A DNA stretch of 64,000 bases from a virus (IMGVR_UViG_3300021425_000008:64001-128000); one strand, 5' to 3'. Shown: positions 1-60,091, numbered from the stretch's first letter. Numbers and translations: made by a program. The notes: generated by a model from the sequence alone, not told the origin.

Positions 1-12
1 ACGGAGGTTGAT

Positions 13-171
13 ATGGCTTACCCTCTCGGCATTGATAACCCTATTCTGATCAAAGGTGTGATTGGTTCACACAAATGGGCATTGTATTGGCGTGAAGACA
101 TGACCAAGATTGCCACATTTAATTCGCAGTTCCAAGCATACGAAGCCCGTCGTTTTCTTCTCTCCAAATAA
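13..171 (+). CDS. small hypothetical protein (52 aa, MAYPLGIDNPILIKGVIG...)
   Basis: Read manually; below the ORF-track cutoff. GGAGG at 3-7, ATG at 13, TAA overlaps the next ATG (TAATG). Confidence 0.7.
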   Translation: MAYPLGIDNPILIKGVIGSHKWALYWREDMTKIATFNSQFQAYEARRFLLSK

Positions 172-329
172 TGAACCAACTCGAAATGTTGTCTGCCCGT
201 GAACAACTCATGGAAGACATTGATTGTATCATCACTGATTACTTTGCACAGTTTGATGTCAATTATGACGAAGAACTTGTGAAGATTTTGTGTGATGCCG
301 TCTGTAACAACTTTCCTACACAAAAATGA
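171..329 (+). CDS. small acidic hypothetical protein (52 aa, MNQLEMLSAREQLMEDIDCI...)
   Basis: Manual translation; coupled to both neighbours by TAATG and ATGA overlaps. Confidence 0.7.
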   Translation: MNQLEMLSAREQLMEDIDCIITDYFAQFDVNYDEELVKILCDAVCNNFPTQK

Positions 330-499
330 AACTATCTAAAGCACAAGTTATTCGTGTGGTCAGAGATACTGCGTTGAATGTTGATAAGAACCTCACACGA
401 GAAGAGAAACAACAAGTCTTCAATAATGTGGTCGATGGTCTACATCGTGACGGAAGAATCACGAAGAAACAACAAATGGCATGGACACATCCGTTCTGA
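326..499 (+). CDS. small hypothetical protein (57 aa, MKLSKAQVIRVVRD...WTHPF)
   Basis: Manual translation; ATGA overlap with the upstream ORF; stops 5 nt before repeat copy 1. Confidence 0.7.
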   Translation: MKLSKAQVIRVVRDTALNVDKNLTREEKQQVFNNVVDGLHRDGRITKKQQMAWTHPF

Positions 500-504
500 T
501 TATT

Positions 505-533
505 GTTAGTAACCTCGAAATGTCCCCTATAGT
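505..533 (+). repeat. 29-bp intergenic element, copy 1 (putative early promoter/cassette boundary)
   Basis: GTTAGTAACCTCGAAATGTCCCCTATAGT. Confidence 0.9.
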
Positions 534-552
534 GTAGGAACCACTCAACCAC

Positions 553-876
553 ATGCGTAAGATCGAAACCCTGATGAACGAAGCAGTTGCCAACAACAAA
601 GATTGGCAATCTTCCAACACCAGTGTTACCTACAACGAAGAGAATGATGTCTCTATTGTTCGTCTTCACGGTAACAAGATCGCAGAGATTGGTGATGACT
701 ACCTTCAGATCTTTGATGGCGGTTGGCAATCCAACACCACCAAATCACGTCTGAATGCACTCATCAACCGTTTCTGCAATGCAGTCACTGATGGTGTATT
801 TCAGAAGGATTATGTTTGGTACGTTCGTGACAACAACGTGACCAAAGAATTTACTTCTGGTTACATCTTTGCCTAA
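553..876 (+). CDS. hypothetical phage protein (107 aa)
   Basis: ORF directly downstream of repeat copy 1; protein-like composition (LHGNKIA, DGGWQSNTTKSRLNA). Confidence 0.85.
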   Translation: MRKIETLMNEAVANNKDWQSSNTSVTYNEENDVSIVRLHGNKIAEIGDDYLQIFDGGWQSNTTKSRLNALINRFCNAVTDGVFQKDYVWYVRDNNVTKEFTSGYIFA

Positions 877-942
877 GATGACTCACGGAGAGACCAACAC
901 TCTCTCCCTATAGTTTTCCCTTCATTCTTTACATTCTTTCTA

Positions 943-1137
943 ATGAAAACCACCACAAAAAGTACTAATCACAAAGTTGAATTTGATTCGTCCGAATATA
1001 TTCTTTTGATGGATATGCTCTCAGATGTTATTAACAATGATGGTAAATTAGATGATGATTTGATGGATTATATTAACACTGATAGTGATAACAATGCCTT
1101 TAATTCTCTCCATTATAAACTCATGCAAGCGATGTAA
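943..1137 (+). CDS. hypothetical protein (64 aa)
   Basis: ORF track; AT-rich and acidic. Confidence 0.65.
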   Translation: MKTTTKSTNHKVEFDSSEYILLMDMLSDVINNDGKLDDDLMDYINTDSDNNAFNSLHYKLMQAM

Positions 1138-1185
1138 TCTTGTTCCCTCTTTTTTATGTCTTTCATCGCACATTACACTGATCCA

Positions 1186-1398
1186 ATGACTCTCACTCCT
1201 CAACAACTTGAAAATCTAAAGAGTGACTATGCCTGGCAAATTGTCGATGGTATGGATCTCAAAACACTTTGCCAGTGGGCAGCAGAACAAATTGAAGCAA
1301 ATATGAAGGATTACGATGAGACTGACCTGCAAGAAGAGATTAGTGATATGATGGGCGAAGATGTATGGGAGGACATGAAGAAAGATGCAATCGGGTGA
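1186..1398 (+). CDS. acidic hypothetical protein (start 1156 or 1186)
   Basis: ORF track 1156..1398; internal ATG (MTLTPQQ) is a plausible start. Confidence 0.7.
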   Translation: MTLTPQQLENLKSDYAWQIVDGMDLKTLCQWAAEQIEANMKDYDETDLQEEISDMMGEDVWEDMKKDAIG

Positions 1399-1585
1399 TA
1401 TAGTAGAATTCAAGGGAGCATCACGATGGCAAGTGTTATGGGCATCGACTGATTATCCATCACATCTTATCATTGGTAAACGCTATGTTGTGGAGAGTGT
1501 ACACACTTATCCATGGTTCACAAAGATCACATTAGAACACAAGTCTGGTCAGTTCAATTCAGTTCATTTCACAAAAGTATCATGA
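1385..1585 (+). CDS. hypothetical protein (66 aa)
   Basis: ORF track; GGAGG upstream; overlaps both neighbours. Confidence 0.65.
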   Translation: MQSGDIVEFKGASRWQVLWASTDYPSHLIIGKRYVVESVHTYPWFTKITLEHKSGQFNSVHFTKVS

Positions 1586-1716
1586 ACAAGTTCACTGTCA
1601 CACTCGAAATTGAGACCTATTCTGATGATCCAGAAGATTGGATTATTGACAGCATCTCCGAGAATCTTGAGGATGATGAACAAATTACGAGCATAAACGT
1701 TCAGTTACAAAGTTAG
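1582..1716 (+). CDS. small acidic hypothetical protein (MNKFTVTLEIETY...)
   Basis: ATGA overlap with the previous ORF; its TAG stop lies inside the GTTAGT of repeat copy 2. Confidence 0.65.
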   Translation: MNKFTVTLEIETYSDDPEDWIIDSISENLEDDEQITSINVQLQS

Positions 1717-1740
1717 TAACCTCGAAAGGTCCACAGTAGT
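1712..1740 (+). repeat. 29-bp intergenic element, copy 2
   Basis: GTTAGTAACCTCGAAAGGTCCACAGTAGT. Confidence 0.85.
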
Positions 1741-1749
1741 ATAAGAGTC

Positions 1750-1807
1750 GGACTTCTCTCACCTGATTGCTTCTCCGAATAGGACTTCTCTCAGGTGATT
1801 GTTTCTC
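1750..1807. repeat. imperfect 26-bp tandem direct repeat with self-complementary cores
   Basis: GGACTTCTCTCACCTGATTGCTTCTC (1750-1775) vs GGACTTCTCTCAGGTGATTGTTTCTC (1782-1807), 23/26 identical. Confidence 0.85.
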
Positions 1808-1836
1808 TGGCTCACAAGCTTTTCTTTTTTTCCATC

Positions 1837-1980
1837 ATGAAAATCGCACTTCTGATTGTTGTTGGTATTCTGTTCTGGACGAGTGATGATGCACGAAACT
1901 TCACCGCAGATCAACTCAACAATGCAAGTGAAATTGTGCGGCCTGATGTTGAGAAGAAAGTCTTCAGCATTAGTTTCTAA
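1837..1980 (+). CDS. small membrane-anchored hypothetical protein (MKIALLIVVGILFW...)
   Basis: In-frame ATG within the track ORF; N-terminal hydrophobic helix. Confidence 0.7.
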   Translation: MKIALLIVVGILFWTSDDARNFTADQLNNASEIVRPDVEKKVFSISF

Positions 1981-1984
1981 TCTT

Positions 1985-2013
1985 GTTAGTTACCTCCAAA
2001 CGTCCCCTATAGT
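1985..2013 (+). repeat. 29-bp intergenic element, copy 3
   Basis: GTTAGTTACCTCCAAACGTCCCCTATAGT. Confidence 0.9.
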
Positions 2014-2268
2014 ATGAACATGACTCAAACCACGATGACCAACGAAACTTACAACGGTTGGGCAAATTACGAGACCTGGAATGTGGCTCTCTGGCTTGGC
2101 AATGACGAGGGTATGTATCGAATGGCTCGTATGTATCGCCATCATGGTTATAAGTCTCTGAGCCATATGTTGGAAGAATCTTATGGCTCAGTCACGCCTG
2201 ATGGTGTATATTGGAAACACGCAGATCTTGATATTGACGAACTGAACGAAATGCTGGAGGATCTTTGA
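2014..2268 (+). CDS. hypothetical phage protein (YNGWANYETWNVALW motif); true start may be 2020 or 2035
   Basis: ORF follows repeat copy 3; I recognise the motif as common in small phage proteins of unknown function. Confidence 0.85.
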   Translation: MNMTQTTMTNETYNGWANYETWNVALWLGNDEGMYRMARMYRHHGYKSLSHMLEESYGSVTPDGVYWKHADLDIDELNEMLEDL

Positions 2269-2270
2269 TC

Positions 2271-2549
2271 ATGAATGCACCTGAGTTCGCCACATCTAAT
2301 CTGTCAAAGATCCGTCCTAAACTTCGTACTCAAGGCAATGTGACTGGTAACTTTGGAAGACCAAAAGTCAAAGCCGCAAACAATCAACAACTCGGATATA
2401 CCAAGAAAGATCACATTAACATGATCACCTGTAAGGAAGATTATATTGCCAAAATGTATCAGATCCTGGATACTACTGATGATCAAAAGATTCGTAACTT
2501 TGCCTATTCAGAAATCAAGAAGTATTTGATACAAACTGGCCAATGGTAA
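2271..2549 (+). CDS. hypothetical basic protein
   Basis: ORF track 2265..2549; GGAGG upstream of ATG 2271. Confidence 0.8.
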   Translation: MNAPEFATSNLSKIRPKLRTQGNVTGNFGRPKVKAANNQQLGYTKKDHINMITCKEDYIAKMYQILDTTDDQKIRNFAYSEIKKYLIQTGQW

Positions 2550-2553
2550 TAAA

Positions 2554-2582
2554 GTTAGTAACCTCCAAATGTCTTCTATAGT
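2554..2582 (+). repeat. 29-bp intergenic element, copy 4
   Basis: GTTAGTAACCTCCAAATGTCTTCTATAGT. Confidence 0.9.
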
Positions 2583-2807
2583 ATGAATACAACTCAAGCT
2601 CTCTCAATTCTCTCTGAACAGTTCAACGCTACTTACACAGGTTCTAAAACAGTTCGTGAAATGTGTTCTAATCTGATCGATGCATGTTATTGGGATAAGG
2701 AAGATCCCAACACTGTATATCATCAGTTTAAGACTCAAGATGGTATGCCAAATCGTATTGTTGAAGATAGTCAAATCATCTCTCTTGCTCTTTCCTATTC
2801 CAACTAA
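2583..2807 (+). CDS. hypothetical protein (74 aa)
   Basis: ORF begins immediately after repeat copy 4. Confidence 0.7.
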   Translation: MNTTQALSILSEQFNATYTGSKTVREMCSNLIDACYWDKEDPNTVYHQFKTQDGMPNRIVEDSQIISLALSYSN

Positions 2808-2809
2808 TT

Positions 2810-2968
2810 ATGCTCTTTAATTGTGACATTGCCTGGTATGATAGCAAAGGTAGGAGACACACTACAACGATTGAATCTGATCGAACAGATAGAGACTTTA
2901 TCCGTCAATTAGTCGAAGCTCGTTATCCTACATCTAAGGTCATTATCAACCGAGTCTATCAAAAATGA
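2810..2968 (+). CDS. small hypothetical protein (52 aa, MLFNCDIAWYDSKGRR...)
   Basis: Manual translation; starts 2 nt after the previous stop. Confidence 0.7.
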   Translation: MLFNCDIAWYDSKGRRHTTTIESDRTDRDFIRQLVEARYPTSKVIINRVYQK

Positions 2969-3012
2969 ACCGTTAATTTATCCCCTTCGGGTATCCATTC
3001 ATTTCATTCATT

Positions 3013-3180
3013 ATGAATCATCACATTTACCATCTAAGGAACACTGAGCTAGATCAGGATTTAGCTCTTATGTTATCACCTATTATAGCTGCCTATCGTC
3101 CCCATGATGACATCCCCAGTAAGGAACAATTAGGTGATCCCATACAACGAGCTACCTGTAATCCTTTCACTAATGTATAA
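3013..3180 (+). CDS. small hypothetical protein (55 aa, MNHHIYHLRN...)
   Basis: Manual translation; followed by a long hairpin. Confidence 0.5.
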   Translation: MNHHIYHLRNTELDQDLALMLSPIIAAYRPHDDIPSKEQLGDPIQRATCNPFTNV

Positions 3181-3186
3181 CGAGTG

Positions 3187-3240
3187 ATAGCTAGATTTAA
3201 CCCCTAAAATAAGGTCTAAATACTAGCTATTGCCTTTTTT
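3187..3240 (+). terminator. long stem-loop followed by a T run; possible terminator
   Basis: ATAGCTAG(ATTTA)...(TAAAT)ACTAGCTAT at 3187-3230, then TGCCTTTTTT. Confidence 0.5.
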
Positions 3241-3369
3241 ATGCCAAATAAATGGCTAATTAAATATAAGCTAATGTTTGCGCTAAGTTACTACAAAGGG
3301 GCTACAGAGTGACTCGCTAGGTACTCATGGGTGCTTAAAATGGCTGATCTTATAGTCATCTAAGATCGT

Positions 3370-3398
3370 ATTCTATCAGACCTTCTGCATAATGTCAA
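3370..3398 (-). promoter_or_regulatory. sigma70-type promoter, antisense/leftward
   Basis: On the - strand: TTGACA-N17-TAGAAT. Confidence 0.65.
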
Positions 3399-3490
3399 CC
3401 CCCAAATCCTGTCAAATCACTAATCCTTATCTGTCATAAATCTCCGAGTCCTCAGAGACACATAAGAGGGTCTTATTTTCCGCCATTATT

Positions 3491-3519
3491 GTTAGTAACC
3501 TCGAAAGGTCTTCTACAGT
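3491..3519 (+). repeat. 29-bp intergenic element, copy 5
   Basis: GTTAGTAACCTCGAAAGGTCTTCTACAGT. Confidence 0.9.
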
Positions 3520-3729
3520 ATGAACACAACTCAAATGCATAAGTTCAACATCTACGGTGAGTTTATCCGCCCTAATGGTCATCAACAGTATGACATTCTG
3601 AGCTACATTGCCGAGACAAGAGAAGAGGCAATTGCTACATGTAGGAAGAACAATCCTCACTTCAACATTATCACAATTCAGGTAGATGATACAGCACCTG
3701 AGGTAGTGAGAATGCAACCCCTTATATAA
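3520..3729 (+). CDS. hypothetical protein (start 3520 or 3535)
   Basis: ORF follows repeat copy 5. Confidence 0.75.
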   Translation: MNTTQMHKFNIYGEFIRPNGHQQYDILSYIAETREEAIATCRKNNPHFNIITIQVDDTAPEVVRMQPLI

Positions 3730-3799
3730 CACTTACTACATGACCTGATGATGTCATTAAACCCATCACACATACACACACTATTTCACACAAACTCTC

Positions 3800-3940
3800 A
3801 TGTCCCGTTCTGTTCTCATTGGTCTGCTGCGTAAGGGAAAGACTGGTGAAGAAGTCCTTGCTATCTTGGACGCCATTTGTAACAACGAAGAACCACAGAT
3901 TGAGAAGAGCTATGGTACACTCGAACCCCTGACATTCTGA
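3800..3940 (+). CDS. small hypothetical protein (46 aa, MSRSVLIGLLRKGKTGEEVLAILDAI...)
   Basis: Manual translation; CA-rich leader; ends 10 nt before repeat copy 6. Confidence 0.7.
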   Translation: MSRSVLIGLLRKGKTGEEVLAILDAICNNEEPQIEKSYGTLEPLTF

Positions 3941-3950
3941 GGGTATTATT

Positions 3951-3979
3951 GTTAGTTACCTCGAAATGTCCCCTATAGT
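3951..3979 (+). repeat. 29-bp intergenic element, copy 6
   Basis: GTTAGTTACCTCGAAATGTCCCCTATAGT. Confidence 0.9.
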
Positions 3980-4228
3980 ATGAACATGACTCAAACCACA
4001 ATGGTTAACACTTTCACTGAGAACTTTGACATCATGGGTGATATGACCATCGATGAACTTATCTCGTTCGTTGATATCAACCCCGTGTCAGTTGTTCACT
4101 CTCCCTCTCCAAATTGTTCGGAGTCTTATGACATCACCTTCAAAACATTTGAAGACATGATGACATTTACCAGAGGATACTTTGGAGACTACAGTGATAC
4201 CGAGATCCGTGAAGTTATGGGTTGGTAA
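3980..4228 (+). CDS. acidic hypothetical protein (start 3980, 3986 or 4001)
   Basis: ORF follows repeat copy 6. Confidence 0.75.
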   Translation: MNMTQTTMVNTFTENFDIMGDMTIDELISFVDINPVSVVHSPSPNCSESYDITFKTFEDMMTFTRGYFGDYSDTEIREVMGW

Positions 4229-4278
4229 GTAACACTCACTGGGGTCACAGTTGTTATCAATTAGTGACCCTACAGTTC

Positions 4279-4308
4279 TTGACACTTAGAGGGGTTATAT
4301 GGTAGACT
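4279..4308 (+). promoter_or_regulatory. sigma70-type promoter
   Basis: TTGACA-N18-TAGACT with a TGn extension; preceded by hairpin GGGTCAC...GTGACCC (4242-4270). Confidence 0.55.
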
Positions 4309-4314
4309 GACAGT

Positions 4315-4475
4315 GTATCGATTCGACAGTGTTTTTGGCGGGTCGTTGATACCGCGGGGACCGCAAAGAGCCCCCCCTTAAAAGAAATTGCGGCAACTCT
4401 AACCTACAAAGGTCCCCAAACGGCCTTAAGAAAAGCCGCCGATAAAAAAAATTTCTATATAAAAAATTCCCCCAT
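4315..4475 (+). ncRNA. candidate structured non-coding RNA or origin element
   Basis: GC-rich non-coding stretch with nested complementary segments (see findings). Confidence 0.4.
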
Positions 4476-4488
4476 AAAGATTTTCCAT

Positions 4489-4710
4489 ATGGCCCCTTCA
4501 GAAGACACGAAGTTATATCACATCTACTTAAAGAACGAGTGTGTACTTCATAGTTTGTCAGAGGAGAATTTTAAGAGTAGTTGGGAGACCTTACAGAATC
4601 TGGTGGGGCTTGTGAAGACTGACTATCATTCTGAGGATCTCTCATATGAAGTAGTGGATGTACTACAGGATAGAGAGGATATCAGTAATCTGTCAGATAG
4701 TTCACACTGA
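4489..4710 (+). CDS. hypothetical protein (73 aa)
   Basis: ORF track. Confidence 0.75.
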   Translation: MAPSEDTKLYHIYLKNECVLHSLSEENFKSSWETLQNLVGLVKTDYHSEDLSYEVVDVLQDREDISNLSDSSH

Positions 4711-4739
4711 CAGTGAGGAATACCGAAGGTATTTCGAGA

Positions 4740-4768
4740 TTGACAGAGTACTACATAATTGGTATAAT
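4740..4768 (+). promoter_or_regulatory. consensus sigma70 promoter
   Basis: TTGACA-N17-TATAAT, perfect consensus, 28 nt upstream of ATG 4797. Confidence 0.85.
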
Positions 4769-4796
4769 AATGATTGAAATGGAGTGATTCTAATTC

Positions 4797-5573
4797 ATGG
4801 CAAAAGGTTTTACAGTAAAGGCTTCAACACCAAAAAAAGATAAAGGTCCAGAGTGGGACTACGAAGCCATTAAAGAGAGAATGAGGGGCAAAGCGATTGT
4901 CTTCTGTCTACCTGGAAGGGGATGTTCATATGCATTCATGAAGAACTTTGTACAATTGTGTTTTGACTTGGTTCAGAACCAGATGAGTATTCAGATCAGT
5001 CAGGACTACTCGTCGATGGTGAACTTCGCACGTTGTAAGTGTCTCGGCGCCAATGTATTGAGAGGGCCTGACCAGATTCCTTGGGACGGTAAGCTTCAGT
5101 ATGATTATCAGTTGTGGATTGACTCTGATATTATTTTTAACACCGAGAAGTTCTGGCAGCTGTGCGACCTAGCGTTAAACTCTGAGGGAGAAGAGAAGGA
5201 GATTGTTGCTGGTTGGTATTCGACTGAGGACGGGCGAACAACCTCTGTTGCACATTGGCTGGAAGAAGATGACTTCAGGAATAATGGTGGTGTGATGAAT
5301 CATGAGATGGTTGATGGTATTCAGAAACGTAAGAAACCCTTTACTGTTGACTACACTGGTTTTGGATGGGTGATGATTCAGAATGGTGTCTTTGAGAATA
5401 AGGCAATGAAGTATCCTTGGTTTGCACCAAAGATGCAAGTGTTTGAATCTGGTGCAGTTCAAGATATGTGTGGTGAAGACGTTTCGTTCTGTCTGGATGC
5501 AATTGACGCAGGATATAATATTTGGTGTGATCCACGGATTCGAGTTGGTCACGAGAAGACAAGAGTCATTTGA
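4797..5573 (+). CDS. glycosyltransferase-like protein (GT-A fold)
   Basis: YDYQLWIDSD (DxD motif), TGFGWVMI, GEDVSFC and C-terminal VGHEK, typical of GT2-like proteins. Confidence 0.7.
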   Translation: MAKGFTVKASTPKKDKGPEWDYEAIKERMRGKAIVFCLPGRGCSYAFMKNFVQLCFDLVQNQMSIQISQDYSSMVNFARCKCLGANVLRGPDQIPWDGKLQYDYQLWIDSDIIFNTEKFWQLCDLALNSEGEEKEIVAGWYSTEDGRTTSVAHWLEEDDFRNNGGVMNHEMVDGIQKRKKPFTVDYTGFGWVMIQNGVFENKAMKYPWFAPKMQVFESGAVQDMCGEDVSFCLDAIDAGYNIWCDPRIRVGHEKTRVI

Positions 5574-5578
5574 TTCTG

Positions 5579-5610
5579 AGGTGGGTTCCTTGACAGGACC
5601 CACCTTTTTT
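5579..5610 (+). terminator. rho-independent terminator
   Basis: AGGTGGGT(T)CCT-TGAC-AGGACCCACCT followed by a T run. Confidence 0.75.
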
Positions 5611-5618
5611 AGTATGAT
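5590..5618 (+). promoter_or_regulatory. sigma70 promoter embedded in the terminator
   Basis: TTGACA(5590-5595)-N17-TATGAT(5613-5618). Confidence 0.7.
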
Positions 5619-5641
5619 ATGGGGGTACAAATGAGACAGGC

Positions 5642-5929
5642 ATGACCTATCGACCAAAGAACGAGTGTGACGATTGTGGTTACACTTGGTATCCAAGAGG
5701 AAAGAATCGTTCACTGAGATGTCCACATTGTGGAAGTCGTGATATCATTCAATATGAAACTCGATACACCACTAATTGGTGGCCTCTTAAATTCTTAGTG
5801 ATTTTATTTGTGTCTTTCATTATTGGTATGAAGGCTCAAGAAGCTAAGAATGATGTTCTGACTAATGTGGCTATGATTGGTTGTCTAGGTGGTGCAGTTG
5901 GTTTCACTATTTCTTACGCAAGAGATTAA
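5642..5929 (+). CDS. zinc-ribbon membrane protein
   Basis: CDDC...CPHC followed by two hydrophobic segments. Confidence 0.8.
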   Translation: MTYRPKNECDDCGYTWYPRGKNRSLRCPHCGSRDIIQYETRYTTNWWPLKFLVILFVSFIIGMKAQEAKNDVLTNVAMIGCLGGAVGFTISYARD

Positions 5930-6075
5930 TGGCAAAACTCAAAAAATCTTTGACTGGTCAGACGATGATCGACTCGACTCCGAAGAAGACTCGTCAGGGC
6001 ATGGGTAAACACACGAAACTTGCAGCAACTTCTGCTAATAAGAAGAAGAAGCGTTATCGTGGTCAAGGACGTTGA
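5929..6075 (+). CDS. small, very basic protein (48 aa)
   Basis: ATG at the TAATG overlap; 11 Lys + 4 Arg, one Asp; ends KKKKRYRGQGR. Confidence 0.8.
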   Translation: MAKLKKSLTGQTMIDSTPKKTRQGMGKHTKLAATSANKKKKRYRGQGR

Positions 6076-6446
6076 TCGAAGGTTATAACCTAACTGTATA
6101 CACTTATCTCGCTCCCAGTAAAGTCTGTGACGGGGTAGGTGTTTTTTCTTTGGTTGATATTCCAAGAGATACTATTATCTTCAAACCAAAGAGGTGTATT
6201 CAGATTACTGATGTGTCTCCTGAGATACAGACCTATCTCAAGAAGATGACTTATTATGATGGTAATGGGTATTGGATTGATGATGATCTACAACGATTAG
6301 GTCAACAGTATTATATCAATCATTCACATCATCCGAATGTAGCTTACGAACGTAGTACAGGACAACTGTATGCGATTCGTGATATAATTAAGGACGAAGA
6401 ACTCACTGATTATTATTTTCCAGGAGAAAGGGATTGGCTTACTTAA
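6072..6446 (+). CDS. SET-domain protein (putative lysine methyltransferase)
   Basis: SET hallmarks: S..DGVGVF...DIP, YINHSHHPN, AIRDIIKDEELTDYY. TTG start overlaps the upstream stop. Confidence 0.8.
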   Translation: MIEGYNLTVYTYLAPSKVCDGVGVFSLVDIPRDTIIFKPKRCIQITDVSPEIQTYLKKMTYYDGNGYWIDDDLQRLGQQYYINHSHHPNVAYERSTGQLYAIRDIIKDEELTDYYFPGERDWLT

Positions 6447-7135
6447 ATCACAGTTTACCTGATTGGTCTTGTTACATTCGTAATGAGTTCCTGTATAACC
6501 ATAAGAAGGGACATGGAGAAGTTACTAAGGCTGATGTCCATAGTGTCGCGAGTATGGAGAAACGTGTCCCTTTGTTTGAGGCGTTTTTGGAGAATGGTGT
6601 CAATTGGACACGGAGACCACTACATGCCTTCTGTTGGGACCCACAGGCCGAGATAGAACCCTTAGAGGACATCATGTACTGGGATTGCTTTAGTCCTTAT
6701 ATTGACGTACAGAGACGACATCGACTTGCTGGTCTTCAGGCACAATTGATTCGACCTGATGATAAGAAAGTATTGGGTGATTATATGTTCACCTTAGATT
6801 GGTCCTGGGAGAATAAAGGTGTACCAGACCTAAACTATTCAGAAACTCCTGAACATAAGTGTGCACACCTGTTTAAGGTTGAAACTGGTAATTATTACGC
6901 CTATCCTAATAATCGGATCATTTGGTACGATAATGCATGGACATTCAAACGTATTGATAAGAATCCTGGTTTTGAGATTGATACCACTGTCTATAGTGTA
7001 GAGAACAAGAGAAAGATGGAAACATCTGATCACTACATGTATGAGGTGACTGATCTAGAAGAACCACAAGATGATTATGATGGTTTGATTGATACTTGGA
7101 AATCACAAGAGTTTAGATACGCTGATCCGCAATAA
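6434..7135 (+). CDS. conserved hypothetical phage protein (233 aa)
   Basis: Long ORF; AGGAG upstream of a TTG start; GNYYAYPNNRIIW motif. Confidence 0.85.
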   Translation: MAYLNHSLPDWSCYIRNEFLYNHKKGHGEVTKADVHSVASMEKRVPLFEAFLENGVNWTRRPLHAFCWDPQAEIEPLEDIMYWDCFSPYIDVQRRHRLAGLQAQLIRPDDKKVLGDYMFTLDWSWENKGVPDLNYSETPEHKCAHLFKVETGNYYAYPNNRIIWYDNAWTFKRIDKNPGFEIDTTVYSVENKRKMETSDHYMYEVTDLEEPQDDYDGLIDTWKSQEFRYADPQ

Positions 7136-7151
7136 ATAATCAAAAAGTGTT

Positions 7152-7307
7152 ATGGACGATAAGAACTTTTTGAGAGAGATTAATCACGATCAGAAAACAC
7201 CAAAGAATCAGAAGAAAGTCCGTCAAGATGGTTTCTATGAAGCGTCTGAAGCGGACTGGAAAGACTTCTGGGAGAATGAAGATAAAACTGAAATTTTAAC
7301 TGAGTAA
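7152..7307 (+). CDS. small hypothetical protein (51 aa, MDDKNFLREINHD...)
   Basis: Manual translation; ATAAATA late-type box at about 7132. Confidence 0.65.
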   Translation: MDDKNFLREINHDQKTPKNQKKVRQDGFYEASEADWKDFWENEDKTEILTE

Positions 7308-7323
7308 TTTGTCGGGATACCCC

Positions 7324-7331
7324 TATAAATA
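7324..7331 (+). promoter_or_regulatory. T4-type late promoter
   Basis: TATAAATA upstream of gp25. Confidence 0.75.
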
Positions 7332-7357
7332 ACCCTAGATTGTTGTAACATAGTTAA

Positions 7358-7759
7358 GTGCCAGTCCAAAGGGTAAGTAAAGGGTTCAAGGACGTTAGTG
7401 CAACGTTCAAGATCAACCCTATGAATTTCGACCTGATTTCAATATCAAATGAGACTGCGATTGCACGTGCAATTCGTAATCTTGTATTTACGGTACCTGG
7501 CGAAAAACCATTTGAACCTAATATCGGTTCTAGGGTCACTGCTCTGTTATTTGAAAATCTGGACGTTCTAACTGCTAGTACAATTCAAAGTGAGATTGAA
7601 TCTACAATCATCAACTATGAACCTAGAGTAGAATTAGTACAGGTTAGAGTAACACCTGATTATGATAACGGAGCATTTGATTGTTACATCAAATATAATA
7701 TTGTTGGAATCGATGTTCCACAACAACAATTATCATTTGTATTACAACCGACTAGGTAA
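7358..7759 (+). CDS. gp25: baseplate wedge subunit gp25
   Basis: AIRNLVFTVPGEKPFEPNIGS and INYEPRV motifs; sits before gp6. Confidence 0.93.
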   Translation: MPVQRVSKGFKDVSATFKINPMNFDLISISNETAIARAIRNLVFTVPGEKPFEPNIGSRVTALLFENLDVLTASTIQSEIESTIINYEPRVELVQVRVTPDYDNGAFDCYIKYNIVGIDVPQQQLSFVLQPTR

Positions 7760-9805
7760 ATGCCTCTAGTTAATTTCGCAAACTTAGATTTTGATCAGAT
7801 CAAGGAATCCATTAAGGATTACCTTCGTACAAACTCAAACTTCACTGACTACGATTTTGAGGGATCGAATCTAAGCACAATTATCGATACGTTAGCATAT
7901 AATACGTACATTACCTCATATAATGCCAATATGGTATCTAATGAGGTATTCATTGATAGCGCCACTCTCAGGGAGAATGTGGTGTCTCTCGCGAGGAATA
8001 TAGGATATGTACCAAGGTCTAGAAAGAGTTCAGTAGCAAATGTATCTTTCGTTGTAAATGCATCTGGTACAACAGCAGTTGCGCTGACACTAAAAGCTGG
8101 TGCTGTATTGACTTCAAGATCAACACAGTCTGATAGAAATAAAAATTATATCTTCTCAATTCCAAATGATATCACCGTTCCTGTAGAATCGGACGGTTTT
8201 GCACGTTTTAATATTGATGTATACGAAGGAACATTCTTAACTCAGACGTTTACTGTCGATACTGGTAACCCTCAACAGAAATTTATCCTTCCAAACTCTG
8301 GTATTGACACCGACACCTTGTCAGTAATCGTCAAAGATACTGAACTTTCGACAGTTTCAAGAAAATTTGAACTTTTTGACAGTCTTTTTAACGTTACTAA
8401 GGATACTAGGTGTTATTTCGTACATGAAATTTCGCAGGAGAGGTATGAATTACTGTTCGGAGATGGAATTTTTGGCGTCAAACTTGATAATAATAACTTT
8501 GTTCAGGCAACATACATTGTTTCCAACGGTTCAGCCGCCAACAATATCAATAATTTCACTTATATCGGCAATATCGTAGATAATAACGGTGCAAGTGTAA
8601 GTCAAGGAGTCTCAGTTGTCTCTACAAACGTTCCTTCTTACGGCGGAAAAGAGATCGAAAGTGTCGAATCGGTCAAAAAATACGCTCCGCAGATCTACGC
8701 ATCACAAAATAGGGCAGTCACAGCAGCAGATTATGAGGCTTTAGTCCCTCAAATCTACCCAGAAGCCGAATCTGTGTCTGCTTTTGGTGGCGAAGACTTG
8801 AATCCACCTGAATTTGGTAAGGTTTTCATCAGTATTAAGCCTTATAACGGCGTATTTTTGTCAACTGCCATCAAACAAAACCTCCAACAACACATTAAAA
8901 AGTACACTGTTGCAGGAATTAGACCCGAAATCATCGATCTTAAGTATCTTTACGTCGAAGCAGACGTTGAAGCGTATTATAATCCAAATAAAGCACCATC
9001 TGGATCGTTTGTTCAGAATGTGGTAACTCAAAATATTGCAAAATATGCAGATTCTTCAGAATTAAACCAATTTGGTGCTCGATTTAAGTATTCAAAGTTC
9101 CAAAAAGTCGTAGATAGCAGTAATGAATCGATGACATCGAACATTACGACCATCAAAATGAGAAGAGATATGCAAGCAAGGCTAAATACCTTTGCTGAAT
9201 ACGAACTTTGCTTCGGAAATCGCTTCCATGTCAAGAATCATGGCCACACTCCAGTCTATGATGGTACTTTACTTGGTTATAATATTAGATCAACTGGATT
9301 TACAGTAAGTGGAATTAGTGGAACTGTATATCTTGGTGATAGACCGACTGGAAACCTTCAAAAAGGAACAGTTTTCCTATTCAAATTAAATTCACCAACT
9401 GAACCAATTATCGTTAAGCAGAATGTTGGTACGATTGATTATATAAAGGGAGAAATAAGATTGAATCCTATTAATATTATTAGTACACAAGTAAATAAGA
9501 ACTCTCCTATTGTCGAAGTATCTGCAAATCCATTCTCAAATGACGTTATTGGTCTCCAAGATCTCTTCCTACAATTGGATGTAAATAATACAACAGTGAG
9601 TGCTGTATCTGACAACATTTCTTCTGGAAATGATGTTTCTGGTACAAATTACATCGTATCATCAAGTTACAGTGTGAATACATTGGTAAGAGGAAATCCA
9701 ATTGTCACCATTGATGTGAATTCAGAGACTGCGTCCGCAACTTCTGCTTCACAAACGGTGACACCTTCAACAACATCTTCTAACACGTTCGGCAGATCCT
9801 ACTAA
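7760..9805 (+). CDS. gp6: baseplate wedge subunit gp6
   Basis: LDFDQIK...FTDYDFEGS, DSATLRENVVSLARNIGY, QNRAVTAADY. Confidence 0.95.
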   Translation: MPLVNFANLDFDQIKESIKDYLRTNSNFTDYDFEGSNLSTIIDTLAYNTYITSYNANMVSNEVFIDSATLRENVVSLARNIGYVPRSRKSSVANVSFVVNASGTTAVALTLKAGAVLTSRSTQSDRNKNYIFSIPNDITVPVESDGFARFNIDVYEGTFLTQTFTVDTGNPQQKFILPNSGIDTDTLSVIVKDTELSTVSRKFELFDSLFNVTKDTRCYFVHEISQERYELLFGDGIFGVKLDNNNFVQATYIVSNGSAANNINNFTYIGNIVDNNGASVSQGVSVVSTNVPSYGGKEIESVESVKKYAPQIYASQNRAVTAADYEALVPQIYPEAESVSAFGGEDLNPPEFGKVFISIKPYNGVFLSTAIKQNLQQHIKKYTVAGIRPEIIDLKYLYVEADVEAYYNPNKAPSGSFVQNVVTQNIAKYADSSELNQFGARFKYSKFQKVVDSSNESMTSNITTIKMRRDMQARLNTFAEYELCFGNRFHVKNHGHTPVYDGTLLGYNIRSTGFTVSGISGTVYLGDRPTGNLQKGTVFLFKLNSPTEPIIVKQNVGTIDYIKGEIRLNPINIISTQVNKNSPIVEVSANPFSNDVIGLQDLFLQLDVNNTTVSAVSDNISSGNDVSGTNYIVSSSYSVNTLVRGNPIVTIDVNSETASATSASQTVTPSTTSSNTFGRSY

Positions 9806-39418: not shown

Positions 39419-41083
39419 ATGGCAAGTGACGTATATCTTGGTAATCCCCTTCTTAAGAAGGCGAATACACCGATTGAATTTACTAAAGAACAAATTGAAG
39501 AGTATATTAAGTGTAAGGACGACCCAGTTTACTTTGCACAAAATTACGTCCAGATTGTAACCCTGGACCATGGTCTTCAACCATTCAAGACCTATGACTT
39601 TCAGGAAAAGTTAATTAAAAACTTCCACGAGAACAGATTTAATATCTGTAAGATGCCTCGACAGACTGGTAAGTCTACAACGTGTGTGTCTTATCTTTTA
39701 CACTACGCAATTTTCAATGATAGTGTTAATATAGGTATCCTGGCAAACAAGGCAACGACTGCTAGAGAACTTCTTTCAAGACTTGCCACAGCATATGAAA
39801 ACCTCCCGACATGGATGCAACAAGGAATCTTGGTCTGGAATAAAGGAAACATCGAATTAGAAAATGGCAGTAAGATATTGGCAGCTTCTACGTCTGCAAG
39901 TGCTGTCCGAGGCATGTCGTTTAACATTCTCTTCCTCGACGAATTTGCCTTCGTTCCAAATCATATTGCAGATGCGTTCTTTGCCTCTGTTTATCCTACT
40001 ATTACTTCTGGTAAATCAACGAAGGTAATCATCGTCTCTACCCCACACGGTATGAATCACTTCTACCGTATGTGGCATGATGCGGAGAAGGGTGCAAACG
40101 AATATGTACCGACAGACGTTCATTGGTCAGAAGTTCCTGGTAGGGATGAAGTCTGGAAAGAACAGACTATCAAGAACACATCTGAACAACAGTTCAAGAT
40201 TGAGTTTGAGTGTGAGTTCCTAGGATCTGTTGATACTCTGATTGCACCTAGTAAATTAAAAGCACTTGTTTACGATAATCCTCTGACACAAAATGCTGGA
40301 CTTGATGTCCACGAACAACCTAAGAAGGAAAATGACTATGTAATTACCGTTGACGTTGCAAGGGGTGTTGGAGAGGATTACTCTGCATTCATCGTTGCCG
40401 ACATTACAACATTCCCACATAAAGTAGTTGCCAAGTATCGTAATAATACGATCAAACCAATGTTGTTCCCCAATATCATCTGGGAAGTTGCCAAGTCATA
40501 TAACAATGCATTCATTCTCTGTGAGGTCAATGACATCGGAGATCAGATTGCTTCAATTCTTCAATACGATCTTGAGTATCAAAACCTTCTCATGTGTGCC
40601 ATGAGAGGTAGAGCAGGTCAAGTTGTTGGACAAGGGTTTTCTGGAACTAAAACACAACTTGGCGTCAAGATGTCTAAGACTGTCAAGAAGGTGGGATCAC
40701 TCAACCTGAAGACTATGATTGAAGAGAATAAGTTGTTGTTGAATGATTACGAGATTATATCAGAATTAACTACATTTATTTCGAAAGGAAACTCTTTTGA
40801 AGCGGAAGAAGGATGTAATGATGACCTTGCTATGTGTTTGGTCATCTATGCATGGTTGGTAGCTCAAGATTACTTTAAAGAACTGACTGATCAGGATGTC
40901 AGAAAGAGATTATATGAAGAACAAAAGAATCAAATCGAACAGGACATGGCTCCATTTGGTTTCTTGAATGACGGTCTTGATGATGGGGTATTTGTTGACA
41001 ATGAGGGAGATAGATGGACCTCTGCTCCAACATATGATGAATATGGAAACACTGCTGGTGGTTGGACTCTTTGGGATTACTAA
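39419..41083 (+). CDS. gp17: terminase large subunit gp17
   Basis: PRQTGKST Walker A, ILFLDEFAF Walker B, VSTPHG, DVARG and DDLAM nuclease motifs. Confidence 0.97.
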   Translation: MASDVYLGNPLLKKANTPIEFTKEQIEEYIKCKDDPVYFAQNYVQIVTLDHGLQPFKTYDFQEKLIKNFHENRFNICKMPRQTGKSTTCVSYLLHYAIFNDSVNIGILANKATTARELLSRLATAYENLPTWMQQGILVWNKGNIELENGSKILAASTSASAVRGMSFNILFLDEFAFVPNHIADAFFASVYPTITSGKSTKVIIVSTPHGMNHFYRMWHDAEKGANEYVPTDVHWSEVPGRDEVWKEQTIKNTSEQQFKIEFECEFLGSVDTLIAPSKLKALVYDNPLTQNAGLDVHEQPKKENDYVITVDVARGVGEDYSAFIVADITTFPHKVVAKYRNNTIKPMLFPNIIWEVAKSYNNAFILCEVNDIGDQIASILQYDLEYQNLLMCAMRGRAGQVVGQGFSGTKTQLGVKMSKTVKKVGSLNLKTMIEENKLLLNDYEIISELTTFISKGNSFEAEEGCNDDLAMCLVIYAWLVAQDYFKELTDQDVRKRLYEEQKNQIEQDMAPFGFLNDGLDDGVFVDNEGDRWTSAPTYDEYGNTAGGWTLWDY

Positions 41084-57887: not shown

Positions 57888-60020
57888 ATGATCAACTACG
57901 AAATCAAGTCACAACTCGCTAAACTCCTTGCCACTGAGAACATGGTGGTGGAGAACGCCAATGTGGAGACTGCACAGTTTGATGTGGAACGTCGAGTTCT
58001 GACTCTCCCGATGTGGAAGAGGGCATCCAACACTGTATACGATATGCTCGTGGGTCACGAGGTTGGTCATGCATTGTATACACCTAATGACTGGTCATGG
58101 GAAGATCGTATTCCTAAACAGTTTGTCAACGTGACTGAAGATGCACGTATTGAGAAACTGATGAAACGTCGATATCCAGGACTGTCTAAGAGTTTCTATC
58201 AAGGATACAAAGAACTTGCTGAAGATGATTTCTTTGATCTTGAGAACAATGATCTTGATTCTTTCAATTTGGCTGACCGTGCCAACCTTTACTACAAGAT
58301 TGGTAACTTCGTAGATATTCCCTTCACTGAAGAAGAGAAGAAGTATGTTGAGATGATGGGTGAGACAGAAACCTTTGCTGATGCAGTGATGGTTGCTGAA
58401 GAGATCTATAAGTTCTGTAAGGTTCAGAGTCAAAAGGAAGAGAGTGTTGATGTTCCTCTGTCGGGTAATGGATCTGGTGAAGGAATGACTCACGAAGAGA
58501 TGCTTGATGAAGCACAACGTCGTGAAGTTGAAAACGGAGAGGGTGAAGAAGACTTTGGTGAACTGGAAGATCTTTCTGAAGGTCGCTCAAAACCACAATC
58601 AACGACTGCTCCAGAACCCGAAGTTCAAACTGACGACATCTTTGAATCTGGTAAAGAAGAATTCAACGGTGGTGTACAACGTGGTGGTCGTGACTTCAAC
58701 TATCTTGAGGTACCAAAGGTCGATGTTGATAAGATTGTAATCTCTAACAAGCAGATTCATCAGGAATTGAATGATCATTGGATCGATCAATTGACACCTA
58801 AAGAGTATTACTGTGCATATACAGAGACAACAAAGATGACACATCCACGAGACTTTGGTCCTGTTGATGCTGAGTACGATCAATACAAGAAGTCTTCTCA
58901 GAAAGAAGTCAACTATCTCGTGAAAGAGTTTGAGTGTAAGAAGTCTGCAGATGCATACTCTCGGTCATTCTCTTCTAAGACTGGTACTCTGGATTGTTCT
59001 AAACTTCATACCTACAAGTATAACGAAGATCTTTTCAGAAAAGTGAATGTCATTCCTGATGGTAAGAATCATGGTCTGATCTTTATTCTTGATTGGTCAG
59101 GATCTATGGGTGACTGTCTGATGGAAACTATGAAGCAACTGTTCAATTTGATTCAGTTCTGCAGTAAGGTCAACATTCCTTTTGATGTGTATGCATTCAC
59201 AAACAACTATCAGAAGAGTGAGGATTATTTTTCTTATACTGAAAGTCCTATTCAGGAAGTCAAAGAGTATGACATGATCATCAGCCCAGACTTCAGTCTT
59301 CTTCACTTCTTCACCAGTGATGTGAACAAGAAACAGCTTGATCAACAAATGAGGAATCTGTATCGTATTGCATATTCCATTGTACGTTGGTCTAACTACT
59401 CTATTCCTGTCGGTTACAATCTCTCAGGTACTCCTCTGAATGAGGCTATCGTATGTCTTTATCAACTTATCCCTCAGTTCAAGACGAAACATAAAGTCCA
59501 GAAGATCAATACCGTGATTCTGACTGATGGTGAAGCAAATGTTCTCCCCTTCTATAAAGTCAACAATTACTACGATGATGGACGTATGGGTTCAGGACGT
59601 GTGTACATGGGCGACTTCATTCGCAATCGTAAGACTGGACACACTTACAAGGTTGAGGGTTCTTTTCACAAGTTCACTGAAGTTCTTCTCGAAGACCTTA
59701 AGACGATGAATCCTGGTGTGAATATTATTGGTTTCCGTCTCGCCAGTAATAGTGACTTCAAAGGATTTGTTCGACGGTATGATGACACCATGACCGAAGA
59801 GTCCTACAGGAAGATCAAAAAGAACAAGTCTGTTGCAATCAAGACCAGTGGATATACTTCTTACTTTGGTATTCTTTCATCTTCTCTTGACAACGACATT
59901 GAGTTTGATGTTGAGGATGGTGCAAGTAAAGCAAAAATCCGATCTGCTTTTGTTAAAAATCTTAATGCAAAGTCTCTAAATAGAAAGGTATTAAGTCAGT
60001 TTGTAGATATCATCAGTTGA
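57888..60020 (+). CDS. metallopeptidase-vWA protein (CobT-like partner of the AAA ATPase)
   Basis: HEVGH zincin motif; DWSGS, GTPL and LTDGE MIDAS motifs. Confidence 0.88.
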   Translation: MINYEIKSQLAKLLATENMVVENANVETAQFDVERRVLTLPMWKRASNTVYDMLVGHEVGHALYTPNDWSWEDRIPKQFVNVTEDARIEKLMKRRYPGLSKSFYQGYKELAEDDFFDLENNDLDSFNLADRANLYYKIGNFVDIPFTEEEKKYVEMMGETETFADAVMVAEEIYKFCKVQSQKEESVDVPLSGNGSGEGMTHEEMLDEAQRREVENGEGEEDFGELEDLSEGRSKPQSTTAPEPEVQTDDIFESGKEEFNGGVQRGGRDFNYLEVPKVDVDKIVISNKQIHQELNDHWIDQLTPKEYYCAYTETTKMTHPRDFGPVDAEYDQYKKSSQKEVNYLVKEFECKKSADAYSRSFSSKTGTLDCSKLHTYKYNEDLFRKVNVIPDGKNHGLIFILDWSGSMGDCLMETMKQLFNLIQFCSKVNIPFDVYAFTNNYQKSEDYFSYTESPIQEVKEYDMIISPDFSLLHFFTSDVNKKQLDQQMRNLYRIAYSIVRWSNYSIPVGYNLSGTPLNEAIVCLYQLIPQFKTKHKVQKINTVILTDGEANVLPFYKVNNYYDDGRMGSGRVYMGDFIRNRKTGHTYKVEGSFHKFTEVLLEDLKTMNPGVNIIGFRLASNSDFKGFVRRYDDTMTEESYRKIKKNKSVAIKTSGYTSYFGILSSSLDNDIEFDVEDGASKAKIRSAFVKNLNAKSLNRKVLSQFVDIIS

Positions 60021-60091
60021 GCCAGTCGGACAACTGTCCCATCCGCCACCCCACAAGGGTGGTTTTCGTATATTATAGCTTTGTTGAGACA
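60021..60091 (+). promoter_or_regulatory. phage promoter module B
   Basis: Same boxes and spacing as module A; includes the palindrome GGACA-AC-TGTCC. Confidence 0.7.

Follow-up and report, generated by a model that had tools for sequence, protein, structure and literature searches.

A repeated, promoter-like element with a lineage-specific box heads the small-gene cassettes of a T4-like cyanomyovirus

The 64,000-nucleotide stretch analysed here (the window) corresponds to C1:64001-128000 of C1, a 141,061-bp IMG/VR viral contig of 68% estimated completeness, and its left end carries six copies of a repeated element, each at the head of a small cassette of genes. We propose that this element probably represents a virus-specific promoter class of the small-gene, early-type region of a T4-like cyanomyovirus: from its sequence and distribution it would be used by the host RNA polymerase together with a putative box-reading factor, while doubling as a homology patch for the exchange of cassettes. 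The contig is a Kyanoviridae-like cyanomyovirus (T4-like), whose closest cultured relatives are the Synechococcus myoviruses S-B43, S-B05, RB11-B and RN05-S (Kyanoviridae). By reciprocal best hits its median protein identity is 86% to S-B05 and 58% to SynMITS9220M01, and the latter two phages are 57% identical to each other. Positions prefixed with C1 are contig coordinates, from which the window position is obtained by subtracting 64000; relatives with an L-number are metagenomic contigs, which make up most of those compared.

A degenerate 29-mer describing the element matches the + strand of the window without mismatches at 505, 1712, 1985, 2554, 3491 and 3951. These are the last six of 13 copies found within 9.6 kb of the contig (C1:58423-67951); no copy lies on the - strand or elsewhere in the 141-kb contig, and the chance expectation is 0 (none in 100 dinucleotide shuffles). 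An initial annotation had placed six + strand copies at these positions, five of them near or overlapping the previous stop codon and each heading a block of one to five open reading frames (ORFs), and these observations are borne out in full. Five of the six window copies begin 4-10 nt past the previous stop or overlap it; across the whole array the element sits 0-12 nt past the preceding stop or overlaps it, the exception being the copy at 3491, which follows a 310-nt non-coding gap; and every copy heads one to five co-directional ORFs.

The window opens inside the tail of a cassette (1..499, + strand; the end of gene 12 and genes 13, 14 and 15) whose element lies at C1:63740, 260 nt before the window. 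The first copy within it (505..533, C1:64505; GTTAGTAACCTCGAAATGTCCCCTATAGT) heads genes 16-20 (553-1716). In the second (1712..1740) the hexamer is degenerate (CACAGTAGT); the copy covers the stop codon of the ORF before it (1714-1716), and a leader of about 95 nt lies between it and a gene for a 47-aa membrane peptide (1837-1980). The remaining four each abut an ATG: the copy at 1985..2013, a GTTAGTTAC variant, heads a DUF7249 gene and one more (2014-2549); that at 2554..2582 heads three small ORFs (2583-3180); that at 3491..3519 heads ORFs 3520-3729 and 3800-3940; and the last of the array, at 3951..3979 and again a GTTAGTTAC variant, heads ORF 3980-4228. All six are on the + strand. The copies at 1985 and 3951 have 24 further nucleotides in common (ATGAACATGACTCAAACCAC), the proteins downstream being otherwise unrelated. 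Contrary to the initial description, the array genes are neither uniformly tiny nor all unrelated: they include a 392-aa helicase, proteins of 298 and 196 aa and the conserved Kyanoviridae families Kyano_Gp96, DUF7249, DUF7326 and DUF7717, and 30 of the 31 array ORFs have homologues on related contigs.

The anatomy of the element points to a promoter. The 29-mer itself is matched exactly; the conserved unit, however, exceeds the 29 bp first proposed, reaching upstream into an AT-rich ATTAWW (-6..-1 in C1) and downstream into RTRANCAC. The 29 bp have the 6+17+6 geometry of a promoter and end in TATAGT, a hexamer found in 85% of copies, followed by RTRANC and then by A. Among 314 distinct copies the first base after the hexamer is a purine in 100%, and the following positions are T (92%), R (96%), A (83%), N, C (65%) and A (79%). 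The C and A preferences would place the start dinucleotide, Y(-1)R(+1), 7 nt past the -10, at the spacing expected of bacterial RNA polymerase. The element contains neither a TTGACA -35 nor a TGn extension, its -35 position reading GTTAGT or TTAGTA, in agreement with the earlier description of a -10-like end lacking TTGACA. The view that it forms a class separate from ordinary promoters likewise holds: strong TTGACA-N17 promoters flank the array, upstream at C1:53699, 54335 and 57173 and downstream at 68279, 68740 and 69590, and are nearly absent inside it. The downstream ones are canonical TTGACA-N17/18 promoters near the array at window positions 4279, 4740 (12/12 match) and 5590, the first two of which (TTGACA-18-TAGACT, 4279-4308, and TTGACA-17-TATAAT, 4740-4768; sigma70-type, + strand) mark the array's downstream boundary and lie outside the element family.

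The family extends well beyond this contig. In IMG/VR, 69 stretches carry the exact 5' pattern and 99 a pattern in which the 5' half may vary; contigs of the family usually carry several copies, always on one strand. S-B05 has about 15 copies of the form (ACAGA)ATTACTCACCTCSAAAKGTCCACTATAGTGTAACCAC and SynMITS9220M01 about 14 of similar form, in arrays laid out as in C1, and the part common to the family is ACCTC-N-AAA-N-GTC-NNC-TATAGT. The core plus -10 pattern has two exact matches in the genomes of ~185,000 species, neither of them cyanobacterial, and host-promoter mimicry in its strict form is ruled out by this count.

The most informative part of the unit is its first 9 bp. This 5' box comes in discrete types (TTAGTW, TTACTC and rarer ones such as TGCCTC), and individual contigs are nearly homogeneous for one of them; in TTACTC-type phages the ATTAWW upstream flank is replaced by (G)ACAGA. 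At eight of eight orthologous sites the box is GTTAGTAAC (GTTAGTWAC) in C1 and ATTACTCAC in S-B05, with the same three changes each time. The near-palindrome GTTA-G-TAAC, initially regarded as a conserved feature, is hence a property of one box type, GTTAGTAAC, related phages having the non-palindromic ATTACTCAC. The 3' halves and leaders, meanwhile, keep site-specific quirks between the two phages, such as the unusual hexamers that precede genes 3 and 9. Another is seen at Kyano_Gp96, where the copy at 505 and its S-B05 orthologue ahead of this gene have nearly identical 3' halves and leaders and the 5' 9-mer is switched. Since the box has changed at all eight sites while the 3' quirks are common to both phages, the 3' half appears to be inherited by descent and the box to evolve in concert.

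These comparisons also bear on the possibility that the element is an ordinary, factor-independent early promoter used by the host SigA holoenzyme alone, the box and 'spacer' being alike only through gene conversion and holding no specific information. A good -10 and a correctly placed start dinucleotide would be expected of such a promoter; early promoters of T4-type phages, too, are conserved well beyond their hexamers, those of T4 having been noted as not plain sigma70-like (PMC2839356), and the site before gene 6 differs by a block including a 10-nt indel, as conversion would produce. Yet the missing -35 is not compensated by a TGn extension, and conversion of whole elements should have erased the 3'-half quirks that C1 and S-B05 both keep. 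Moreover, the ACCTC.AAA.GTC block is kept between phages of ~57% protein identity, and foreign-type copies are rare (4 of ~65 contigs), though genes 90-95% identical occur in arrays of different type. We therefore regard use by SigA alone as rather unlikely. Selection to match a type-specific reader would be the simplest account of the homogeneity of the boxes.

The absence of a -35 consensus and of TGn, the absence of the pattern from cyanobacterial genomes and a box that is lineage-specific, switched at eight of eight sites, together make factor dependence a reasonable inference; this part of the earlier claim of a factor-dependent early promoter stands, and no reader of the box was found among the array families. 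The labels 'early' and 'host-takeover' are presumptive, being applied only by synteny with the small-gene region of Syn9. As a tentative extension, a large group of T4-like cyanophages might encode, and perhaps deliver with their DNA, a promoter-specificity factor that reads the 9-bp box at about -35 to -27 and redirects the host RNA polymerase to the first phage genes; such a factor would be for the early class what MotA/AsiA is in T4, and would have evolved together with the box types (TTAGTW, TTACTC, TGCCTC and others). A screen of all array families yielded none with low cross-type but high within-type identity. DUF7717 (array gene 11), whose C1 and S-B05 versions are 47% identical against the median of 86%, was considered as the reader and rejected: its tree mixes element types in both deep clades and would need at least seven label changes.

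At one and the same position in the array (C1:63371-63727, 629-273 nt before the window; L078:8119-8445; L079:12031-12414), DUF7717 is represented by either of two alleles that diverge deeply. Which of them a phage carries follows neither phage relatedness nor element type, a pattern that looks like allelic replacement. Outside the window, a 288-aa protein of phrog_17490 encoded in a virion/baseplate gene cluster (C1:20101-20967) is similarly only 47% identical to its S-B05 orthologue against the genome median of 86%, its S-B05 and SynMITS9220M01 versions keeping the expected 56%; in a search of five long partial contigs it was not found. Such a pattern would be expected of either a host-range protein or a type-linked factor.

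The known systems closest to the element resemble it in part. T4 middle promoters, which combine a MotA box with a -10 and depend on sigma appropriation by MotA/AsiA, resemble it in having a good -10 and a phage-specific box in place of the -35, and hence in factor dependence. The C1 element, on the other hand, contains no TGCTT MotA box, and its genes lie in an early-type region; a factor would therefore need to be delivered with the DNA or synthesized very early. T4-like cyanophages have been reported to lack motA/asiA (PMC5780444).

A second comparison is with Syn9. Synteny identifies the array with the cluster of small genes that lies upstream of purM, with the helicase region on one side and the gp25 baseplate genes on the other. 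The syntenic slots of Syn9, S-RIM2 and S-H35 hold a different unit, in which a CATACT/TATTCT -10, often accompanied by a weak -35, is preceded at ~28-30 nt by a two-armed GTGNCAG...GTGKCCAC box. Doron et al. reportedly described in 2016 a novel, non-host-like element for the early genes of Syn9 and host-like promoters for its middle genes. We reconstructed the Syn9-type motif from the Syn9, S-RIM2 and S-H35 sequences, and the comparison with that study rests on this reconstruction; the papers citing Doron et al. do not reproduce its motif, and the motif strings of the C1 element were not found in the phage literature. The two families have in common the genomic slot, a non-host-like upstream module, host-like TTGACA promoters outside the cluster and, in some Syn9, S-RIM2 and S-H35 units, a -10 plus ATAAGAGTC start region also present in C1 copies. 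They differ in the module itself: the Syn9-type box is two-armed and far from the -10, whereas the C1 unit is TTAsTnACCTC.AAA.GTC abutting TATAGT. No two-armed GTGNCA...TGTCCAC box is present in the C1 units; conversely, the core pattern is absent from Syn9, where ACCTCNAAANGTC is not enriched. With regard to how T4-like cyanophages switch on their first genes, C1 displays a second element family at Syn9-type slots.

The position of the start codons poses the main difficulty. Of 195 copies, 74 have an ATG directly abutting TATAGT, as do 84 of the 314 in the wider set. This ATG is in frame and open in 50 of the 51 copies whose downstream reading frame is clear; 53 of 56 other ATGs within 30 nt are in its frame, and 19 of 50 abutting ATGs have no other in-frame ATG within 39 nt. 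Where no ATG abuts the hexamer, translation would first find an in-frame ATG mostly 15-25 nt further on. No terminator-like site precedes any copy, and neither terminators nor hairpins occur between units; folding of the 45 nt upstream of the 13 copies gave z-scores of -3.1 to +0.9, one of them below -2, and window positions 1-8000 contain no Rfam match. Because no terminators intervene, it is plausible that abutting ATGs are served by read-through from upstream.

The same observations allow the element to be seen as an RNA-level signal on read-through transcripts: an intercistronic translation-initiation region or operator (e.g. of RegA) or a processing site, with no promoter at all. That it stands 0 nt (27%) or 15-25 nt before start codons, that abutting ATGs are in frame in 50 of 51 cases and so on an mRNA, that the array lacks terminators and that conservation is strand-specific would all suit such a signal. 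An RNA signal, however, would have no need of exact -35/-10 spacing or of a C-A pair at +7; there is no stable structure and no Rfam match, the bimodal distance to the start codon is odd for a ribosome-binding signal, and the syntenic Syn9-type units have clear -35/-10 promoters. Taken together, we consider a purely RNA-level role improbable.

An alternative for the abutting ATGs is a start site at the invariant purine after TATAGT, as at the promoter of a non-host polymerase with T7/SP6-like CACTATA|G geometry, the ATG-abutting copies then giving leaderless or near-leaderless mRNAs. This would explain why the purine is present in 100% of the 314 copies and would take the abutting ATG as a real start; in addition, the conserved leader GTAAGGGTTCAG, which abuts TATAGT in S-B05 and C1, begins in S-RIM2 just where transcription from a canonical promoter is expected to start. 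Nevertheless, a single-subunit RNA polymerase (PF00940) was not found in C1 nor in the complete S-B05 and SynMITS9220M01 genomes, in a search that recovered the positive control, P-SSP7, at E=2.7e-69. A T7-like polymerase reading is rejected on this basis. C1 has a single sigma-like match, whose 16.5 bits fall short of the Pfam cut-off; this weak match is taken, by inference, as gp55-type. A non-host polymerase is accordingly a very unlikely user of the element.

Comparison of relatives suggests that the elements also take part in recombination. Gene order varies widely, and elements border most of the moved blocks. The best case involves the cultured S-B05: gene 2 (91% identical) is flanked by genes 1 and 3 in C1 but follows gene 11 in S-B05, and the homology tracts of its cassette to the two S-B05 places (C1:58424-59396, 59407-60028 and 60003 onward) overlap only inside elements; the C1 arrangement is independently confirmed by L059, L065 and L028. 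Of 18 distinct indels or replacements relative to close relatives, ~13 are bounded on at least one side within a few nucleotides of an element edge (offsets e.g. +0, -4, +32), a count to be read against a random-junction expectation of already ~66%, as ~42% of junctions carry an element. In the window, homology of the 2554 copy to the close relatives L034/L059 stops +32 from the copy start, and in L039/L057 the genes after the 3491 copy (directly following it) and after the 3951 copy are replaced, with left breakpoints at +35 and +49. A single TTAGTA-type unit stands inside the TTACTC-type arrays of L107/L120/L099; since it differs across the whole unit and is followed by the same leader as the 1712 copy, a leader that also follows an S-B05 copy, the foreign-type element and its cassette appear to have moved together.

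Exchange is not confined to the elements. Genes 4 and 14 have been precisely deleted (gene 14 in L028/L025/L031) and a 149-nt segment inserted at element-free junctions. L059 and L065 carry insertions of 659 nt and 1.1 kb directly at the 5' edge of an element, neither of them with elements on both sides. A 266-nt insertion with gene 17 (943-1137) is absent from L034, L028, L059, L031 and S-B05; at its left edge (887..917, + strand) a stem-loop (GGAGAGA...TCTCTCC) is fused to the half-element CCCTATAGT, which looks like a degraded element at the insertion joint. Adjacency is kept at 33 of 88 element junctions versus 69 of 120 others, a difference in the predicted direction that is not significant (Mann-Whitney p=0.18). 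The earlier idea of a homology block thus holds in so far as both junctions of the gene-2 relocation fall in elements, breaks occur at element edges and a foreign-type element travels with its cassette, and is limited by the indels at element-free junctions and by the statistics. From the aligned sequences, the elements seem to be used as exchange points, though not exclusively.

The initial annotation had gone further and compared the region to an integron-like array, in which the element would be the recombination site of site-specific gene capture. Cassettes delimited by one repeated element and a gene content that varies between relatives do recall such arrays. Nonetheless, no tyrosine recombinase (PF00589) is encoded in the contig, at its 68% completeness, in a search whose control was found in 14 of 14 genomes; the element is unstructured, with no imperfect inverted repeat, hairpin or attC-like feature, and stands with promoter geometry at the 5' end of every cassette, whereas integron cassettes are mostly promoterless with a 3' attC; and indels occur at element-free junctions as well. 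Site-specific capture of this kind is exceedingly improbable.

A closer parallel, also drawn initially, is with the promoter-early stem-loops (PeSLs) known from the T4-type phages RB49/phi1, T4/PST and KVP40/nt-1 (Arbiol et al. 2010, PMC2839356; Comeau et al. 2014, PMC4122927), a PeSL-like density of which was judged absent in cyanophage S-PM2 (PMC4503421). Like PeSLs, the element recurs in a single orientation, brings a probable promoter with an AT-rich tract (ATTAWW) upstream of it, and heads cassettes of small non-essential genes in a hyperplastic region (13 copies among small co-directional genes in 9.6 kb). Between relatives there are clear cases of indels and replacements, and one of relocation, with junctions in or at the unit, alongside events at element-free junctions. 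Unlike PeSLs, the element has no sigma70-consensus -35 and no stem-loop or terminator upstream of any of the 13 copies, so that its cassettes are not transcriptionally insulated; its 'spacer' is conserved and contains a lineage-specific 9-bp box, and a start codon is often built in. It is thus not a member of that class: the element is neither a PeSL, nor of Syn9 type, nor integron-like.

In the mechanism we favour, the host RNA polymerase would most likely take TATAGT as its -10 and begin transcription 7 nt further on, at the conserved C-A pair, with the conserved 22-bp block standing in for the usual -35 contact. The first 9 bp of this block (GTTAGTWAC in C1, ATTACTCAC in S-B05) would be a lineage-specific recognition box for a putative, probably phage-encoded factor. 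With no terminators between units, the array would also be read through from upstream promoters, allowing abutting start codons to be translated. The ~45-bp unit at every cassette head would further offer the phage recombination system a short homology patch by which cassettes could be relocated, inserted or replaced, such element-based shuffling being one route among others.

Several points weigh against this mechanism. Its main weakness is that a start at +7 would drop the abutting ATG from the unit's own transcript. No candidate reader emerged among the array gene families, DUF7717 included. The enrichment of breakpoints at elements over other junctions is not significant, and selection for intact transcription units would yield the same breakpoint pattern. 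Finally, repeats can make metagenomic contigs, such as most of the relatives used here, chimeric. At the same time, a box that changes at every orthologous site between phages 86% identical provides a concrete handle for finding its reader; S-B05 and SynMITS9220M01 are cultured systems that carry the element; and the array documents, at nucleotide resolution, one way in which accessory genes move in abundant marine viruses.

Several further features accompany the array. The S-B05 record (MK799832.1) has an annotated 102-bp 'repeat_region' at 40399-40500 and 158813-158914, a duplicate of the 3' end of the gene-5 homologue that sits where an earlier 40,500-bp partial record ends. In this record the two halves of the array are 118 kb apart and in opposite orientation, unlike in C1, SynMITS9220M01 and Syn9, and the split may be a real inversion or an assembly join. 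Two S-B05 regions that lie 118 kb from each other seem to be fused at C1:61617; no weight was placed on this junction, since the 102-bp repeat and the partial record make an artefact possible. In L065, the 1.1-kb insertion (5083-6222, minus strand) is bounded by the 8-nt direct repeat GTGTTTGA and encodes a 361-aa ORF that has no Pfam match; it may be a mobile gene targeting intergenic junctions.

The 310-nt non-coding gap before the 3491 copy (window 3181-3490) lies, from 3217 on, within a match of ~84% identity to S-B43. It has no Rfam match. A strong promoter on its minus strand (TTGACA-17-TAGAAT, TG-extended, 3398-3370) is directed away from the array and may give rise to an antisense or small RNA. 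The ~95-nt leader of the 1712 copy (1741-1836) contains a repeated GGACTTCTCTCA, an 8-bp inverted repeat (TCACCTGA/TCAGGTGA) and a T-run; it is kept in S-B05 and L107/L120, and a related leader in S-RIM2 follows a canonical TTGACA-17-TACAAT promoter. Lastly, a conserved single-copy non-coding site upstream of gene 30 (window 4380-4488, core 4399-4417; ...CCCCCTTAAA...CTAACCTACAAAGGTNCCC...TATATAAAAAATTYCCC...) occurs once each at the same syntenic place in S-B05, SynMITS9220M01, Syn9, S-RIM2 and S-H35. Its centre resembles the element core (TAACCT-NN-AAAGGTCC), a post hoc observation that could reflect a common binding factor or a common origin.

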